Source: Escherichia phage vB_EcoS-12210III. From it: a stretch of 44,219 bases of DNA. Below are positions 2,835 through 44,219 of the stretch, one piece after another (the first letter of the stretch is position 1; each line of letters begins with the position of its first letter). The stretch lies in sequence record MK907227.1; one strand, written 5' to 3'. A program made the translations under genes and the position numbers. The notes under the pieces were generated by a model. The model searched no databases and was not told where the DNA came from. It saw only the letters and a list, made by a program, of their open reading frames with translations.

Positions 2835-4409
2835 ATGAGTGATGTTTTAGTTTGGGAGGAGCTATCCCAATCAGAAAAGCAAGCCATCAGGCTTCTTTCC
2901 ACGCATAACTTCGAGACATTCCTTCGGGTATGGTTCAGCCTGACACAGGGCCAGAAGTACATCATGAACTGGCATCACAGGTATCTTTGCAGGATAGTTG
3001 ACGAGATTATTAGCGGAGATCGAAAGGATACAATCATAAACGTATCGCCTGGCGCCGGTAAAACCGAGATCACATCCATCCACTTTCCAGTTTATAGCTA
3101 TCTAAAACTACCAAAAGTGCGAAATCTTAGCCTTTCGTTCTCTGATAGCCTGGTTAAGCGAAACTCTAAGCGAGTGCGCGACCTAATTAAGTGCAAGGAG
3201 TTTCAGGAGCTATTCCCTAGCAAGTTTGGCACGTGCAAGGATGATGAGATTCAGGTTCTCGATGAGTCAGGCAAGGTTCGCTTTGAGTCGATATCAAAAG
3301 CTATCGGAGGCCAGATTACAGGTTCACGTGGCGGCTACATTACTGACACCTATAGTGGTTGCCTTATGCTGGATGATGTAGATAAGGTTGATGACATGTT
3401 TAGCAAGGTTCGCCGAGAGTCGGTTCATATGCTCCTGAAGAACACCATTCGCTCTCGTAGGGCTAGCTCGGTCAAGGGTAAGGCCACACCAATTATTTCC
3501 ATACAGCAGCGATTGCATGTTAACGACTCAAGTTGGTTCATGGCTGAATCTGGAGGTATGGGGATAGACTTCGATGTGGTGAAGATTCCGGCGATAGTTA
3601 CTGAGGATTACATCGACACACTTCCTGACTGGTTAAAACCACACTTCGAGGCTGACGTTCTATCTAGTGAGTACATCGAGCGAGATGGTGTTAAGTACTA
3701 CAGCTACTACCCACAAAAGGAATCCATTCATGATTTAATGGCTATGCAAGACGCAGACCCATACACGTTCGCAAGTCAATATATGCAAAGCCCCATAGCT
3801 CTAGGTGGCAACATGGTGGATACGGATTGGTTTATACGTTACGGTGGAGATTTGCGAGCGCCATTGAAGTATGATTACCGATTTATTACTGCGGATACCG
3901 CGCTTACCACGAAGTCGTACAGTGACTTTAGTGTATTCCAGCTGTGGGGAGTAAAAGACAGAAAGCTATACCTTCTTGATATGGTTAGGGGTAAGTATGA
4001 AGCGCCCGAGCTTGAGGCTACCTTGCTAGAGTTTGAATCCAATGCGAGAAAGACTAATCGGGAGGAGGGTATTCTTCGGAAGGTAATCATCGAGAAGAAA
4101 GCATCTGGTATCGGTCTGATTCAATCTGCAAGCAGGGTTATGCGTACACCTATTGAGCCATTTATACCAGATACAGATAAAGTTACCAGAGTGCTGTCAG
4201 CAATGCCTCAGATTAAGGCTGGAAATGTAATGATTCCAGAATCGGCGCCGTGGATGAGTGCATTCATCTCTGAGTTTTCAGCATTTACAGCAGACATGAG
4301 CCACCGCCATGATGACATTGTAGATACAACAACAATGGCAATAAACTGCGAGCTAAACCTTGCAGATGACCCTAAATCGCGGATGTTACGCCTCGCAGGA
4401 ATTAAATAA
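2835..4409 (+). CDS. Terminase large subunit
   Basis: 524 aa; N-terminal P-loop (VSPGAGKTE), C-terminal nuclease-like region with conserved acidic residues; canonical position before the portal gene. Confidence 0.85.
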   Translation: MSDVLVWEELSQSEKQAIRLLSTHNFETFLRVWFSLTQGQKYIMNWHHRYLCRIVDEIISGDRKDTIINVSPGAGKTEITSIHFPVYSYLKLPKVRNLSLSFSDSLVKRNSKRVRDLIKCKEFQELFPSKFGTCKDDEIQVLDESGKVRFESISKAIGGQITGSRGGYITDTYSGCLMLDDVDKVDDMFSKVRRESVHMLLKNTIRSRRASSVKGKATPIISIQQRLHVNDSSWFMAESGGMGIDFDVVKIPAIVTEDYIDTLPDWLKPHFEADVLSSEYIERDGVKYYSYYPQKESIHDLMAMQDADPYTFASQYMQSPIALGGNMVDTDWFIRYGGDLRAPLKYDYRFITADTALTTKSYSDFSVFQLWGVKDRKLYLLDMVRGKYEAPELEATLLEFESNARKTNREEGILRKVIIEKKASGIGLIQSASRVMRTPIEPFIPDTDKVTRVLSAMPQIKAGNVMIPESAPWMSAFISEFSAFTADMSHRHDDIVDTTTMAINCELNLADDPKSRMLRLAGIK

Positions 4410-22968: not shown

Positions 22969-23012
22969 ATAGTATCGCATCCTTGCGATCAGTGTTTAGC
23001 AATTAGTGCTAT
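22969..23012 (-). promoter_or_regulatory. Conserved phage promoter unit (minus): palindrome at 22996-23012, 22-nt spacer, -10 TACTAT (22969-22974), leader CATCGAAACGA
   Basis: Reverse complement matches the family consensus; overlaps the 3' end of the Rha-like gene. Confidence 0.5.
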
Positions 23013-23656
23013 TTCTTTTCCAGCAGCAGCTTAATGTCAATTCCGAGATTATTCTCAATCAATCCAGTCAGCGCATCATTCTTTTCTTTAAGGGCGAAGC
23101 ATTGGGCTTCATACTTAAATCTTTCCTCCATCTCATCAGAACGACTAGCCCAACACTGGCGAGCCTCACAAGCCAGCATGTCTAGTTTTTCATCGGTACT
23201 CTTATCCATGAGTAAGATCTCATTTATTCTTTGCTCTGCAACAATGCGCTGGCTCAGGTGTGCATTCTGCGCATTAGCCACACCAAGCATCATTCGAACC
23301 TCTTTAAGTTCATTAATGCTTACCATCTGGCTGATTACTTCTGCTTGTTTTTTAACTAACGCCTCAAGCTCATGAAGTCGACGGATAACTCTGTGACGAA
23401 GAATGACGCTGTAGCCAGTTATTAGCGTTTCTGTAAGTTCCTTGTTAAGTAAAATCTCTGATGTATAGCCTAAATTATCTGTAAGTACTTGATAATCCTC
23501 ACTCCTTAAGTATGAGGAGTTGTTATAATGTATCAAATCATTGATCATTTCCTTGGCATCACGAATTACCTTATTATGTTCTTTACCAGTTAACCCCGCG
23601 ATCTCTTTGGTGCTCATCATGGCAACGTTGGTATCTTTAAATGGCTTGATATTCAT
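23009..23656 (-). CDS. Rha-family phage regulatory protein (putative)
   Basis: N-terminal motif STKEIAGLTGKEHNKVIRDAKEMI resembles the Rha signature (GK.H..V.RD); start taken at ATG 23656. Confidence 0.5.
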   Translation of the reverse strand: MNIKPFKDTNVAMMSTKEIAGLTGKEHNKVIRDAKEMINDLIHYNNSSYLRSEDYQVLTDNLGYTSEILLNKELTETLITGYSVILRHRVIRRLHELEALVKKQAEVISQMVSINELKEVRMMLGVANAQNAHLSQRIVAEQRINEILLMDKSTDEKLDMLACEARQCWASRSDEMEERFKYEAQCFALKEKNDALTGLIENNLGIDIKLLLEKK

Positions 23657-23657
23657 T

Positions 23658-23987
23658 TTAACCGCCAAAAATTTTATTAATCAATTTATCAGCATCATCC
23701 TGAGACAGCTTCAATCTCTCTATTGGCTCTGGTTTTTTGCCTGTAACATTCCATCCTGTACATTTTCTTTTTATGTCAATACGCCTTGAGACTGAGTAGT
23801 AAGAGGCAACTTCAACCCTTTCAACAACCCCATAAGATTCAAGTTCAAGCAAGGTCCTCCTTGCGTTAGCCCTTTGGATTCCTGTCAATCTAGATACATC
23901 ATCCGCGGTAGGGCTGTACCTATCGCATCCTTCAGTGCAGTGTAGTATGCAATCAATTACCTTTTTTCTTGTGCTTGTCATTCTCAT
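23658..23987 (-). CDS. Winged-helix DNA-binding transcriptional regulator (putative)
   Basis: 109 aa; HTH-like segment (DVSRLTGIQRANARRTLLELESYGVVERVE); strong RBS GGGAGG; leader contains a palindromic half-site array. Confidence 0.5.
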   Translation of the reverse strand: MRMTSTRKKVIDCILHCTEGCDRYSPTADDVSRLTGIQRANARRTLLELESYGVVERVEVASYYSVSRRIDIKRKCTGWNVTGKKPEPIERLKLSQDDADKLINKIFGG

Positions 23988-24035
23988 CTTTCATCCTCCC
24001 GTTATGTATGCGATGAATATACTCGTTAACTCATA

Positions 24036-24101
24036 TGTAGTCAATATTGCTGACTACATTTTATTGCAGTCACTTCAAATGACTACATTTAATTGTAGTC
24101 A
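24036..24101. promoter_or_regulatory. Array of five 8-bp half-sites in alternating orientation: TGTAGTCA (24036), TGACTACA (24051), TGCAGTCA (24066), TGACTACA (24080), TGTAGTCA (24094)
   Basis: Read from sequence; spacing 15, 15, 14, 14 bp; lies between the -10 of the regulator gene promoter and its start codon. Confidence 0.6.
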
Positions 24102-24152
24102 CTTAAACAAAATTGCCATCCAAAAAGTAAAGTAAAAACCTCGCTCCCTGAG

Positions 24153-24196: not shown

Positions 24197-24318
24197 TTAT
24201 CGCCAATTTCACCACAAATCACGGTTACACGTAACCGATGTAACTCGATGTATGCAATCTCATCCGCGAAAAATGATATACGCGCTGTTACGCCAATTTA
24301 CGCATTAGTTACATTAAA

Positions 24319-24388
24319 ATATCTATATATATCAACCTTTTACTCTTATTATTATTATTATATATATTACTGTGTATATCATGTAACT
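24319..24388. repeat. AT-rich ~70-bp repeat, copy A (ATATCTATATATATCAACCTTTTACT...(TTA)n...TATATAT...TACTGTGTATA)
   Basis: 26-bp exact match plus microsatellite-containing tail shared with copy B at 41355-41425. Confidence 0.8.
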
Positions 24389-24549
24389 ACTTCTATAGAG
24401 TGTTCCGGTTATAATTTTAATATCATGTGGATTTATACAGTATTGCGCGACAGCTATACCAATGCACCATTAGCAATAAATGATATACACGATATACACG
24501 ATGGTTACATTGAGCTATGGCTGGGCTGAGATGCCAAGAAACGTAACTA

Positions 24550-24879
24550 GTGGTAATACCTACACGGGATTACAAAGGATTCACGCGTAAGTTTAAATCA
24601 ACGATTGGTGAAACCAATTGGACTGGCTACAGTGCCGAATATATAGTTAACTCATCGAAAGCAAACAACCAGAGAGATGCAGAAATGACCTACTACATTA
24701 TCAAAGAGAAAAACAACGCACTGTTCGGCGACTGCTATTTTGGTGGCCCAGCTGGATACACCACGAATAAGAGCGAGGCTGACAGATTCGAGACTAAAGA
24801 GGAAGCTAGGGATGTACTGAACGGATACTTCACTGAAGAAGATTTGAAGTCTGTTAAAGTAGTTAAGGTTAAGGAGTAA
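24550..24879 (+). CDS. Hypothetical protein (start uncertain; internal ATG at 24676)
   Basis: ORF from the track; no clear RBS at either candidate start. Confidence 0.4.
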   Translation: MVIPTRDYKGFTRKFKSTIGETNWTGYSAEYIVNSSKANNQRDAEMTYYIIKEKNNALFGDCYFGGPAGYTTNKSEADRFETKEEARDVLNGYFTEEDLKSVKVVKVKE

Positions 24880-38178: not shown

Positions 38179-39762
38179 TCACCCCAATAGTCGTGGATTA
38201 ATGTAAACTTTATCACCAATCAGGCACGTGTAGTTTTTCTCATCAAGCATTGGCAGCAAGTGGTCTTTAATCTTCGTCATTACTCCCGCTTGAGCCTCGA
38301 ACGGCTTAACCTTGCGAGCCGCTTCATATAGCGAACGAATACCTACTACTCCTTTCCCGTTTTTGCCTTGCTTAATCAGGATATCAATCAGCTTATTCAT
38401 CTCTGCATTGTCGCCAGCGTGACCCGCGGCGTTAGCGGATGACAAATAAGTCTTGCTAAGTTCCTGGAACATAATTACAGCTTCCTGCATTGTATCAAGC
38501 TCAATTTCTCTCGACTTCTGAGGGCTACCGCCATTTGGGTTGAACCAGTTACGCACAGTGTGAAGAACCGCCGCAATCCTGATTGCCTGCTTATCGAACT
38601 TACCCAACGCGCCTCGCAACATTGTGTGTGAATACTTCCCGCCGTCAGCAAGGTGCGGTTCCATCTCCTGACGCGCGCGGTTGAGATATTTCATTGCTGA
38701 ATTACTAACTGTCAACTTAACTTCTTGTTCATTCATGATTTCATGAACCAGACGGAAGTAGTTAGCCTTAAGCTCACCATCTATCGGTTCGTAAGTTGAC
38801 TCACCATTTTCATCAACAAACACACGCTCGCCCAGGAATGACTTTTCACGTACAAGCAGGAAACGTTCAGATACACCGATACCACGCGCGCCAGCGTTCA
38901 TGATCGCATTGATTGTTTCATCCTGTGCAATTACAGAGATGCAACCCATAGCAACAAAGCTCATATTGTTTTCTGCGTTAGCACGCGCAATTGACACGTT
39001 ACCAGCATCCCAGGCCTTCAGCACAAGCTCGCTGTTCGTTTTCTTCGAACCATCACCATAGGTCATACCAAGCAGTGAGTTGACGCTGGTTGCTTCATCT
39101 GATATTACAGCAAAGCTGCCCTGGCGGTTGTTTATTCGCGCAAGTCCTTCCGGTGTGGTATCTGACACAGGGAAAACGATATCACATAGTTTCTCGAGTT
39201 TTTCCTCTAGTTCCTCTTTCTCCTCAAAAAGTGAAGCCATCTCTGACGGAGATTTTTCCTGCTTCATCTCTTTGGATAATTCAGATAGTTTTGCCATAAT
39301 TTTCTTGCGCTCACGCTTTCTCACTTTATTTAGTCGCTCAGTCTCAGCAATCATTGGAGCAATTGAAAGTGAGTTGATTGCTGATTTACCCGTCGATGGT
39401 GGCTGACTCGTTACGACGTACAGCGAAGTCGGTTGCTGCGTTCCGTGATACTCAACAGTAAATCGACCCAGCATTGCAGCGGAAATACACCCCAGGAAGT
39501 GCATGTAAGCTGACGACTCAGGGAACTGAACAGAACGGGCAATATTAGCTGACAGCTTACCAACAACATCAATGTCATTACCTAGTGAGATTACTGGATA
39601 CTTGTCATTAGCTGCATCAATCTCGACTGGTGCTTTCCAGAATGATTGAGACTGGCGATAGCCATTAGCATTAATGGCGACGCGCAGGGGCGGGAGGTTT
39701 TCTGCGGCAGCAATTGCCATAACCTGTTCAACAGATAGTTTATCTTCGTTGAAATCGAACAT
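38179..39762 (-). CDS. P-loop NTPase, DUF3987-like (putative replication/primase-associated ATPase)
   Basis: 527 aa; Walker A-like SQPPSTGKS and Walker B-like AVISDEAT; its N- and C-terminal segments are paralogous to the protein at 42248..42670. Confidence 0.6.
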   Translation of the reverse strand: MFDFNEDKLSVEQVMAIAAAENLPPLRVAINANGYRQSQSFWKAPVEIDAANDKYPVISLGNDIDVVGKLSANIARSVQFPESSAYMHFLGCISAAMLGRFTVEYHGTQQPTSLYVVTSQPPSTGKSAINSLSIAPMIAETERLNKVRKRERKKIMAKLSELSKEMKQEKSPSEMASLFEEKEELEEKLEKLCDIVFPVSDTTPEGLARINNRQGSFAVISDEATSVNSLLGMTYGDGSKKTNSELVLKAWDAGNVSIARANAENNMSFVAMGCISVIAQDETINAIMNAGARGIGVSERFLLVREKSFLGERVFVDENGESTYEPIDGELKANYFRLVHEIMNEQEVKLTVSNSAMKYLNRARQEMEPHLADGGKYSHTMLRGALGKFDKQAIRIAAVLHTVRNWFNPNGGSPQKSREIELDTMQEAVIMFQELSKTYLSSANAAGHAGDNAEMNKLIDILIKQGKNGKGVVGIRSLYEAARKVKPFEAQAGVMTKIKDHLLPMLDEKNYTCLIGDKVYINPRLLG

Positions 39763-40815: not shown

Positions 40816-40995
40816 TCAAATAAATGGTAAACATTCAACGCATCCAAGTCCATCACAGCACAGGAATTCATCCTCTGACTGGAATTGCTTAGCCAAGTTA
40901 ATGTCCAACTTTCCGCGCAACACAAGGTCTGTGTAATCTTCGTTAAGCCCAATCAGTGCGCATTCGTTACGAAGTTCATCTTTATCAATCTTCAT
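40816..40995 (-). CDS. Small Cys-containing hypothetical protein (59 aa)
   Basis: ATG 40995 with RBS GAGGAG downstream of a promoter unit; C-terminal CCDGLGCVEC. Confidence 0.35.
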   Translation of the reverse strand: MKIDKDELRNECALIGLNEDYTDLVLRGKLDINLAKQFQSEDEFLCCDGLGCVECLPFI

Positions 40996-41022
40996 TTCTA
41001 TCTCCTCGTTTTTGATGAGCTA

Positions 41023-41067
41023 ACTATAGCCTCGCTAACTCATAATGTCTTTAGCAAAAAGCGCTAT
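41023..41067 (-). promoter_or_regulatory. Conserved phage promoter unit (minus): palindrome variant 41051-41067, 23-nt spacer, -10 TATAGT (41023-41028)
   Basis: Family member. Confidence 0.45.
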
Positions 41068-41354
41068 TCGTCAGATTTATGCATTGTTGCAGATATTGCA
41101 ATGATTCACATGATTATTGCACATACAGCAATATTGCTTCTGATGCAATGATGTTTTTGATTGTTGCGAAAAGTGAAATGAAGTGGTGGGTGAGTGAATG
41201 AAAGATGGATTGACTACCATACAAGTTGATTTTCATTCTTGGTGAGCCATTCTTGAGATATACGAGTAACCATCGTATACCAAGTGTCGTCACAAAAGTT
41301 AGTTACCACTAACCTACGTTTTTTACGCGAGATATACGCACGATATACAATATA

Positions 41355-41425
41355 ATATCTATATATATCAACCTTTTACTTTATTATTATTATTATTATT
41401 ATATATATGTATACTGTGTATACCG
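41355..41425. repeat. AT-rich ~70-bp repeat, copy B (with (TTA)6 microsatellite), inside a 540-bp non-coding AT-rich region
   Basis: Matches copy A at 24319-24388. Confidence 0.8.
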
Positions 41426-41699
41426 ATAATTGATTGGATAATTGATATGTTCCGCGCAGATATTCTGACACTTGTCAGAATGGGATGACATTGTAGGAAT
41501 AAAAAGGCGCATATATAGGAAAGCACTCCCAAAAACGGTACACAGGGGATACGGCACGTTTACAACCAGTGCTGACGCTGCCTTGGAGGCCGAAAAAACG
41601 TATCCGCGATGGAATAGACATAAAAATACGTTGACCGACACGTAAACAAGTGGCAAGATGGCAATCACTGAAACGAAGTAAACGAAACGAGGTATCAAC

Positions 41700-42248
41700 A
41701 TGCAGAAAGTAACACTTGGCGAAGTTATCCGTGAGATGGTGCGTAACGCAATGGCGTCTGAGAACGGCGAGTTCAAAGTTCCGGTAAGCCAGATATTCAA
41801 ACTTGTTCGCGGCAAGCCATATCCAGAAATGGAGTATGACGAAGAGACTGACGAGATCCTAAACCTGGCAGACAGGGCGATGCCTGAACTCAAGAACTCG
41901 TACATCTACAATACCGTGTCGCGAATGACTGAACTACGAGACGCCAACAAGCGAGCGCGCTACAAGTTCATCTGGATTGACGATGAAGGCGAGCAAACCA
42001 GGCCGGGTAATTTCGACGGCGATGGTGCTGATAAATACCTGGTAATTTATATTGAGAACGGCTCTCACTGGACTGGCAATCGTGAGAAGAAGAAGCAGGA
42101 AGCAGAGAAAGAGGTCGCCATCATTGAAAGGTTCAAGGCTCGGTTACTCAAGATCACACCTAACGTTATCGACCTGCAAGGCGAGCAGAAAGAGGGCGCT
42201 CTCATTGCCCTGGCCCGTTACTATGAAATGATTAAGGAGACTAACTGA
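41700..42248 (+). CDS. Hypothetical protein (182 aa)
   Basis: ORF from the track; leader contains AAACGAAACGAG. Confidence 0.55.
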   Translation: MQKVTLGEVIREMVRNAMASENGEFKVPVSQIFKLVRGKPYPEMEYDEETDEILNLADRAMPELKNSYIYNTVSRMTELRDANKRARYKFIWIDDEGEQTRPGNFDGDGADKYLVIYIENGSHWTGNREKKKQEAEKEVAIIERFKARLLKITPNVIDLQGEQKEGALIALARYYEMIKETN

Positions 42249-42670
42249 TGTTTAATTTCGATGAAGAGAAACTGACGGACGAGCAGATTATGAATATTGC
42301 TATCCAAGATGGGCTGCCACCGCTACTGGTTGCAATCAATGCTAACGGGTATCGACAAACGCAAGGCTTCTGGGGTCATCCCGATGCGTCAGAAGTATAC
42401 AAAGATGAAGCGCTTGGCGTTCTGATTAATATTATTAGGAAAATGGCAAAGAACGGCAAGGGCGTGCTTGGTATCAGGTCTTTATACGAAGGCGCTCGCA
42501 GGGCGAAAAGAATTAAGGGTGGCAATGACAGGCTAATGGCGCGCATTAAGGATGAGTTTATCCCAGCCCTAGAGAGTATGAATCTAGCTTGCCTCATTGG
42601 AGATAAGATTTATGTTCATCCGGCAATCCTCGAGGAGAGCTGGGAGCCTAACTTCAAAGTATACGAATGA
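42248..42670 (+). CDS. Mini-paralog of the DUF3987-like NTPase termini (140 aa; lacks the ATPase core)
   Basis: N-terminus MFNFDEEKLTDEQIMNIA...LPPLLVAINANGYRQTQGFW matches the NTPase N-terminus; C-terminus KNGKGVLGIRSLYEGAR...CLIGDKIYVHP matches the NTPase C-terminus. Confidence 0.6.
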   Translation: MFNFDEEKLTDEQIMNIAIQDGLPPLLVAINANGYRQTQGFWGHPDASEVYKDEALGVLINIIRKMAKNGKGVLGIRSLYEGARRAKRIKGGNDRLMARIKDEFIPALESMNLACLIGDKIYVHPAILEESWEPNFKVYE

Positions 42671-44020: not shown

Positions 44021-44219
44021 ATGATTACTATTAACCTGTCAGACAAGCAAGCAGCAGAACTGAAGTCGATGATTAATTCATTCATGCCAACACGAAGTGA
44101 TAGCCAGCGCAAAGCGGTAGATGAGATTCGCGCACAGATTAATAATCAGCAATTCGACGTCAGTGACTTCGAATCATCACGCCAGTACGAGGCGCTTATC
44201 GTTAATGCCGCATACCTCA
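44021..44219 (+). CDS. 5' portion of the hypothetical early protein that continues at 1..156 across the wrap point
   Basis: ATG 44021 with RBS GAGAGGA; reading frame continuous through the 127-bp overlap. Confidence 0.5.
   Translation, partial: MITINLSDKQAAELKSMINSFMPTRSDSQRKAVDEIRAQINNQQFDVSDFESSRQYEALIVNAAYL

Follow-up and report, generated by a model that had tools for sequence, protein, structure and literature searches.

Phages of the family Drexlerviridae have been described as pac-type, headful packagers (PMC11447400; PMC7718038), and the authors of the SU57 genome located the pac site of T1 and other T1-like phages in an untranslated region (PMC7718038) whose counterpart is examined here. 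For TLS, a sub-molar fragment seen in restriction analysis served to map pac, which became position 1 of the genome (PMC11447400). TR1 was classed as headful by PhageTerm, with its packaging site at record position 3,615 inside 'hypothetical ORF13' (PMC10450929), in agreement with the GenBank note; for UDF157lw, the deposited record had been re-opened at the PhageTerm terminus (PMC10838988); and the start of the SU57 record is a PhageTerm end, at which read depth also changes abruptly (PMC7718038). The corresponding DNA of Escherichia phage vB_EcoS-12210III (sequence record MK907227.1; 44,219 nucleotides (nt), the whole of which is referred to as the window) is a gene-free gap at positions 40996–41699. 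As in T1, TLS, TR1, UDF157lw and SU57, it lies between a leftward operon of small genes and a DUF7174 gene, is of similar length, and is built of alignable DNA with a 21-nt repeat and a block of palindromes; the published termini or starts of those phages fall at aligned positions 41127–41235. We consider it likely that the gap is a composite left-end control region of T1-like genomes, with a promoter at each edge, a pac site and an AT-rich module. Its left third (~41070–41235) most likely corresponds to pac, the site at which headful packaging begins.

The gap runs over 704 bp from the start codon of a minus-strand gene (40816–40995) to the ATG of a plus-strand gene (41700–42248). An initial annotation, made from the sequence alone, had flagged a 540-bp gene-free, repeat-rich and AT-rich region here as the best candidate for a replication origin or a regulatory hub. 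The observation itself is confirmed: no conserved open reading frame (ORF) is present, although the size was underestimated, and the gap has a GC content of 37.1% as against 44.4% for the genome. Of the two parts of the call, 'hub' is right; 'origin' finds no support in the repeats on which it was based. Forty-two GenBank records of 44,219 bp (Escherichia phage vB_EcoS-12397V and others) match 901 bases around the region at 100%; they are assigned to Drexlerviridae, Braunvirinae, Veterinaerplatzvirus, that is, to the T1/Rtp-like siphophages. Positions 1–127 of the window are identical to 44093–44219, an assembler overlap of a circular contig that leaves a non-redundant circle of 44,092 bp, and the 42 records are differing circular permutations of one assembly. 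Record ends are therefore uninformative on the physical ends of the DNA.

For comparison, the homologous gap was taken from 15 other phages belonging to Braunvirinae, Rogunavirinae, Tunavirinae, Tempevirinae and the unassigned genus Nouzillyvirus. Its setting is constant, with a leftward operon of tiny genes on one side and, on the other, a rightward operon that opens with the DUF7174 gene; its length is 634–716 bp in 14 of the 16 phages, the others being TLS (783 bp) and Rtp (1015 bp). When the published termini are aligned to the window, the three that derive from sequencing converge: TR1 position 3,615 falls on 41209, the break of the UDF157lw record on 41210/41211 and the SU57 start on 41235. 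By homology to these, the predicted pac cleavage zone is 41209–41235 on the plus strand. The first cut would fall at ~41209–41211, between GAAAGATGGAT and TGACTACC, ~30 bp past the fourth of the palindromes described below and right after a set of GTGAATGAA-type repeats. Packaging probably runs rightwards, the orientation of the PhageTerm-ordered UDF157lw record and of the T1 record. Position 1 of TLS aligns to 41149/50, and the T1 and Rtp records open at 41132/33 and 41126/27, respectively. The TGCAAT and GTGAATGAA repeats, which had been read as iterons of an origin, thus sit directly left of three relatives' packaging termini and also lie where the T1, Rtp and TLS records open, which points to pac rather than to an origin.

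The ATTGCA/TGCAAT units reported earlier are present, yet they are not simple repeats but parts of TTGC-N7-GCAA palindromes. Four of these form an array, P1 (41087–41101), P2 (41117–41131), P3 (41134–41148) and P4 (41164–41178), with start-to-start spacings of 30, 17 and 30 bp; P4 is degenerate here (TTGCGAAAAGTGAAA) and intact in TR1, Rtp, 50EP, Jk06 and T1. The exact pattern occurs five times in the window (1.45 expected), three of these occurrences lying inside 62 bp. A fifth exact match (TTGCCATGGTGGCAA) lies at 2380–2394, inside the small terminase gene, and may be a chance occurrence given the 1.45 expected genome-wide. In TR1, AN_ECEAS and CY1 the palindromes start 92, 122, 139 and 169 nt from the leftward start codon, and most other relatives retain the 30/17/30 spacing at shifted offsets. 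In P3 and P4 the arms are 94–98% identical by column, whereas the 7-nt spacers reach just 67–74%. T1 differs in retaining only P3 and P4, and TLS in having unrelated repeats at this place (GACCGATTGGTCTA, twice). Between the array and the predicted cut, the direct repeats GTGAAATGAAG and GTGAGTGAATGAAAG were found as first noted (41171–41204, plus strand); they belong to a GAATG/GATGG-rich tract that runs up to the cut, and of the relatives all but T1 and TLS conserve GAATGAA.

Conservation within the gap has two peaks. The first and highest of the locus (41044–41170; 88–96% column identity in 14 phages) contains the four palindromes together with one of the 21-nt repeats, and the second (41348–41410) coincides with the AT-rich core. 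In BLAST comparisons, 41079–41210 was 76–96% identical over 70–100% of its length in 12 of 12 relatives, a level that exceeds both flanking genes, so that this segment behaves as a conserved non-coding element among phages that share the terminase. A search for distant relatives through the DUF7174 protein returned two loci. A scan of IMG/VR with an invariant 20-mer gave 36 loci, mostly copies of the 21-nt repeat in other genera, the true homologues being isolates already sampled.

The packaging machinery is of the type expected of a pac phage. The small terminase subunit (TerS) matches Pfam GP3_package (PF16677, 4e-13) and the structure of P22 gp3 (PDB 3P9A, E = 7e-16), and the large subunit (TerL) carries Terminase_6C. 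TerS is 52% identical to that of T1, comparable to the 54% reported for TerL between SU57 and T1; a covariation of TerS with pac was looked for in these values and no such signal was seen. The terminase genes are closely preceded by a tRNA-Arg(TCT) gene at 1923–2000, which is the sole match at gathering score when the whole window is compared with Rfam. We propose the four palindromes as terminase recognition or assembly sites of pac. On this proposal, the P22-gp3-type TerS together with TerL would assemble on the array, the first cut would be made ~30 bp beyond the last palindrome at ~41209–41211, and headful packaging would then proceed to the right, taking in the early genes before it reaches the terminase and structural genes. 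The recognition sequences guessed at previously, ATATA repeats for T1 and, by analogy with P22, AGATTT for TLS, do not match the conserved palindrome array.

Other pac phages offer partial parallels. P22 has in common with this phage a clearly homologous TerS and sequential headful packaging from a unique start; by contrast, its pac lies within gene 3, whereas the site proposed here is non-coding, palindromic and 5.2 kb upstream of terS. The pac of SPP1 is multipartite (pacL-pacC-pacR), and that of phage P1 consists of hexamer clusters that flank a site for integration host factor (IHF) and the cut. The likeness to these two lies in short, repeated protein-binding units beside a defined cleavage point, in promoter-bearing non-coding DNA and with an IHF-type site near. 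The sequences and TerS families are unrelated, however, and the IHF-like site here is ~160 bp past the cut and duplicated 17 kb away.

Several points weigh against this assignment of pac. The phage's own 42 records, being arbitrary permutations, give no terminus, and the cut is placed here by homology alone. PhageTerm did not give a clear terminus in the relatives KanT1, 7WV and MSK, and the position reported for MSK (36,862) is not meaningfully mappable to this site. That start, which carries the class 'unknown' (PMC8421802), corresponds in the equal-length OzMSK record (PQ659294, 36300–37500) to a short and unrelated intergenic spot; either the two records have different coordinates or the PhageTerm call is unreliable. 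The starts of T1, Rtp and TLS sit 60–85 bp left of the sequencing-based termini, and convention may have had a part in their choice. P22, the nearest of the TerS relatives whose site is defined, uses a 22-bp asymmetric sequence inside gene 3 (terS) (PMC11447400). The only resemblance to it found here was the 8-mer AGATTTAT at 41073, which occurs six times in the window and is not significant. Finally, the palindromes, here proposed as TerS sites, might be bound by a transcription factor or by a replication protein instead.

Each flanking operon is predicted to be served by its own promoter at the edge of the gap. The leftward promoter, PL (41023–41067, minus strand), was found by a promoter scan and consists of a −10 element TATAGT (41028–41023) and a −35 element AAGACA (41051–41046) with a 17-nt spacer. 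The −35/N17/−10 arrangement recurs 26–37 nt before the start codon in 13 of the 16 phages, and the block is 88–92% column-identical in 14 relatives. A copy of the 21-nt repeat, ATAGCGCTTTTTGCTAA (41067–41051, minus strand), abuts the −35 element at about −37 to −57. The repeat motif, ATAGCACnnnTTGnTAA, is that of TLS, aaATAGCACnnnTTGnTAAAA, and has 21 matches in the window against 1.4 expected (≤2 mismatches); these are always oriented along the direction of transcription, in TLS and here alike. They include plus-strand sites at 297, 1129, 26044, 33710 and 42990 and minus-strand sites at 22996, 24180, 30706, 37665, 40405 and 41051. The TLS authors regarded the function of the repeat as an open question and named UP-like elements as one option (PMC11447400). 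What is added here is its exact placement, directly adjoining the −35 element of a −35/N17/−10 promoter.

The rightward promoter, PR (41631–41699, plus strand), comprises a −35 element TTGACC (41631–41636), a 17-nt spacer and an extended −10 element TGg-CAAGAT (41651–41659), followed by a 5′ leader with GAAACGA repeats and the Shine–Dalgarno sequence of the DUF7174 gene (ATG at 41700). In all 16 phages, the best-matching pair within the final 110 nt of the gap is sigma-70-like and has a 16–17-nt spacer, and in 15 of them the −10 element ends 30–49 nt before the ATG, although the sequence cannot be aligned in distant relatives. At the level of sequence, therefore, sigma-70 promoters stand at a conserved distance from the genes on both sides. 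If both operons are served from the edges of the gap in this way, the ~560 bp between are left for other functions.

The most AT-rich part of that interval is an element that occurs twice in the genome. A 70-bp AT-rich copy recognised earlier is real but extends further, 41332–41420 matching 24296–24385 over ~90 nt, and the paralogy of the two modules, B here and A at the second locus, reaches well beyond 70 bp. Module B begins with a left array of WTACRC-type units on the plus strand (41314–41350: CTACGT at 41314, TTACGC at 41323, ATACGC at 41334 and ATACAA at 41345) spaced at 9, 11 and 11 bp. The densest WTACRC windows genome-wide are those at 24276 and 41301, and an array of three or four copies, 9–12 bp apart, stands ahead of the AT-rich core both in the module B of 15 relatives and in the module A of four phages. 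The core (41351–41425, plus strand) consists of ATATCTATATATATCAACC, which includes a perfect IHF-consensus core, TATCAACCTTTTA (41366–41378), a (TTA)7 tract (7.3 units; 41381–41402) and then TATATATGTATACTGTGTATACC. Three phased repeats with an 11-bp period form the right array (41538–41565, plus strand: GTACAC at 41538, ATACGG at 41549 and TTACAA at 41560). Its counterparts are CGATTAACA three times in tandem in T1, GAACA three times in TLS, and two copies of GATATACAC plus GGTTACAT in module A. The general layout is thus a left array, ATATCTATATATATCAACC with TATCAACCTTTTA, (TTA)n, TATATATGTATAC and, ~110 nt on, a right array.

The core is 83–94% column-identical and is the lowest-GC stretch of the genome: 41332–41425 has 19% GC, and the lowest-GC 100-bp windows genome-wide start at 41351 (17%) and 24301 (21%), in copy B and copy A, respectively. 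The TTA/TAT-type tract of module B varies from 12 to 27 nt among relatives in steps of 3, with 6 nt in T1 and TLS. In module A it measures 12–15 nt in four phages, and T1's modules have 6 nt, a microsatellite-like polymorphism in otherwise conserved DNA. The IHF core pattern is not enriched in the genome (four matches, 3.1 expected), two of the matches being the identical 13-mers of A and B, and it is altered (AACAA) in several relatives.

Module A (24270–24400, plus strand) occupies the other large divergent intergenic region, upstream of an operon with rtp46-like, exonuclease, Erf and SSB genes. The duplication is old and both copies have been maintained, because module A is conserved at its own locus (80–95% identity) in more than 90 further phage records. 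In the right part of the pac-region gap, DTL (gap positions 499–657), PCEc3 and CY1 have unannotated ORFs of 52–70 amino acids (aa) (..LSYSWA.MPF.VTTP.SYQKLHL..) that resemble the opening sequence of the rtp46-like gene next to module A (window 24480–24550), and the old duplication may have included the 5′ end of a gene. The rtp46 homologue in this phage appears N-terminally shortened by a TAA at 24544.

Between the core and the right array, the inverted repeat initially placed at 41463–41482 is present but parses differently, as a perfect 9+2+9 palindrome ATTCTGACA-ct-TGTCAGAAT at 41462–41481. With an imperfect copy, GATGACATTGTAGGAA (41484–41499), whose centre is ~20 bp away, it makes up an operator-like pair (41462–41499). 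In JulesPiccard and Jk06 both arms of the palindrome are changed together (TTCCTACA..TGTAGGAA) and symmetry is kept, as would be expected of a putative site for a dimeric protein. The pair is missing from DTL, CY1, PCEc3, Rtp and C119 and is therefore lineage-specific. The other large divergent gap of this genome, that of module A, has at 24035–24107 TGTAGTCA-N7-TGACTACA palindromes with a 29-bp period, next to a 109-aa gene resembling winged helix-turn-helix (wHTH) regulators (23658–23987, minus strand) and a Rha-family gene (23009–23668, minus strand). Operator-like sites in the pac-region gaps of relatives resemble this same TGTAGTCA-N7-TGACTACA pattern. Both operon promoters, palindromes of operator type and the non-coding block that is best conserved in the family come together here, and the initial description of a regulatory hub at a point of divergence holds.

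These features leave room for readings of the gap other than the composite one. That it conceals a small protein gene or a structured non-coding RNA is highly improbable. The only plus-strand ATG ORF in the gap (41079–41201, 40 aa) has been annotated as a hypothetical protein in three relatives (TR1, BEK1-1 and Phleasolo), but it has no Shine–Dalgarno sequence, and 8 of the 16 phages have no ATG ORF of 25 aa or more at this position even though the underlying DNA is 76–96% conserved; a TTG-started 57-aa ORF (41472–41645) is shared with no more than the three closest relatives, among which its frame and stop change. In some relatives small ORFs have been annotated at this place, and these are probably spurious. 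When three sub-segments were folded, the plus strand of 41070–41330 surpassed shuffled sequence (z = −2.5), as against z of about −1 for the opposite strand and for the right half. This signal can be attributed to the palindrome block, because the four palindromes alone yield it. Rfam gave nothing for the region at gathering score and, at E ≤ 1, one sub-threshold match to a small RNA (E = 0.12), and no terminator-like site was found in the gap. The region accordingly has neither a conserved ORF nor a conserved RNA fold or RNA family. A weightier alternative, though in our view still somewhat unlikely, is a purely transcriptional control region, in which the palindromes, the WTACRC arrays and the 41462–41499 pair would bind wHTH, Rha or Cro-like regulators that time the divergent early operons. 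The AT-rich module would then be an UP-like or architectural element (for IHF or H-NS) or an extra early promoter, and the start of packaging would be incidental to the region or lie elsewhere. The presence of both operon promoters, the symmetry preserved through two-arm changes in relatives, and the palindromes beside wHTH-like and Rha genes in the other divergent region speak for such a reading. Yet the TTGC-N7-GCAA array lies 70–160 bp upstream of PL and ~450 bp upstream of PR and overlaps no core promoter, and the convergence of three sequencing-based termini on 41209–41235 is left unexplained. Promoter-like hexamers do occur inside the AT-rich core, where a promoter is annotated in AHP24; they are weak, however, and the putative −35 element (TTTACT) is not conserved, so that promoters within the core were rejected as candidates.

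The AT-rich module could possibly be either a replication origin or an array for regulators or architectural proteins. Recent literature has identified no replication origin in T1-like phages, and the origin idea can be restated for modules B and A as iteron-type origins, a reading that we hold to be rather unlikely. In this scheme the phased WTACRC arrays would be recognised by a phage protein and TATCAACCTTTTA would be the point at which IHF bends the DNA; melting of the (TTA)n/TATATAT tract would let the helicase load there, and transcription would run away from each origin on both sides. Candidate binders would be the C-terminal winged-helix domain of the MCM-like DUF3987 helicase (527 aa; 38179–39762, minus strand), or its 140-aa mini-paralogue (42248–42670, plus strand). 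Residues 1–45 of the latter are 49% identical to the helicase N-terminus and residues 60–128 are 44% identical to its C-terminal region, described as a winged-helix domain by Kazlauskas et al.; the ATPase core is absent. The mini-paralogue could be a DNA-binding regulator or a competitor of the helicase. In this arrangement, phased direct repeats do stand beside an AT-rich element, the four WTACRC units adjoining a core of 17–19% GC. A and B are the two most AT-rich spots of the genome, both lie at points of divergent transcription, and each combines an IHF-consensus core with short direct repeats, three or four (9–12-bp spacing) at one flank and three at the opposite one, the repeats of T1 and TLS being specific to their lineages. 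The tract length is free to change in steps of 3, unlike that of a promoter spacer; the flanking operons have promoters of their own and do not need the module; and the helicase gene lies 1.2 kb to the left and the winged-helix-part paralogue 550 bp to the right. Against this, the repeats are merely 6 bp long and degenerate, a search of the gap showed no DnaA box and no GATC, the IHF core is altered in several relatives and its pattern is not enriched, and two conserved copies would equally fit regulatory modules. The units first called iterons, moreover, coincide with the packaging cut and not with the AT-rich element. GC skew followed gene orientation only and gave no help in locating an origin. 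The closest analogues are iteron-plus-AT-rich origins such as lambda ori and those of iteron plasmids, in which phased direct repeats lie beside the least stable DNA with a possible IHF site; these differ in having repeats of ~19–22 bp, as against 6 bp here, and DnaA boxes, which are lacking here. SPP1, with oriL and oriR, provides a case of two copies in one pac-type phage, like A and B. It appears doubtful that twin modules B (41314–41565) and A (~24270–24530) are the long-sought T1-like origins, read by the DUF3987 winged helix and/or the mini-paralogue with IHF. If they were, one origin would lie ~150 bp from the pac cut.

We return, then, to the composite left-end region with pac in its left third. 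That pac of T1-like phages lies in this untranslated region was already known at the level of the family. What is new, as predicted from sequence comparison, is that three independent termini converge at base level, that four palindromes form an array which is a candidate for the recognition element, that the 21-nt repeat has a defined place with respect to the −35 element, and that the AT-rich modules have a twin architecture. For annotators, the result indicates where the genome should be opened, and for this particular sequence it is mostly housekeeping. T1 belongs to the classical set of seven T phages, and phages related to it are notorious contaminants of fermenters and laboratories; recent papers nevertheless list terminase recognition at pac, the start of replication and the role of the 21-nt repeat as unknown. 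A packaging cut beside a palindrome array found across the family would supply a concrete candidate for the recognition element, which may be useful for making T1-type transducing particles or for blocking packaging, and the twin AT-rich modules would offer two specific places in which to look for an origin.

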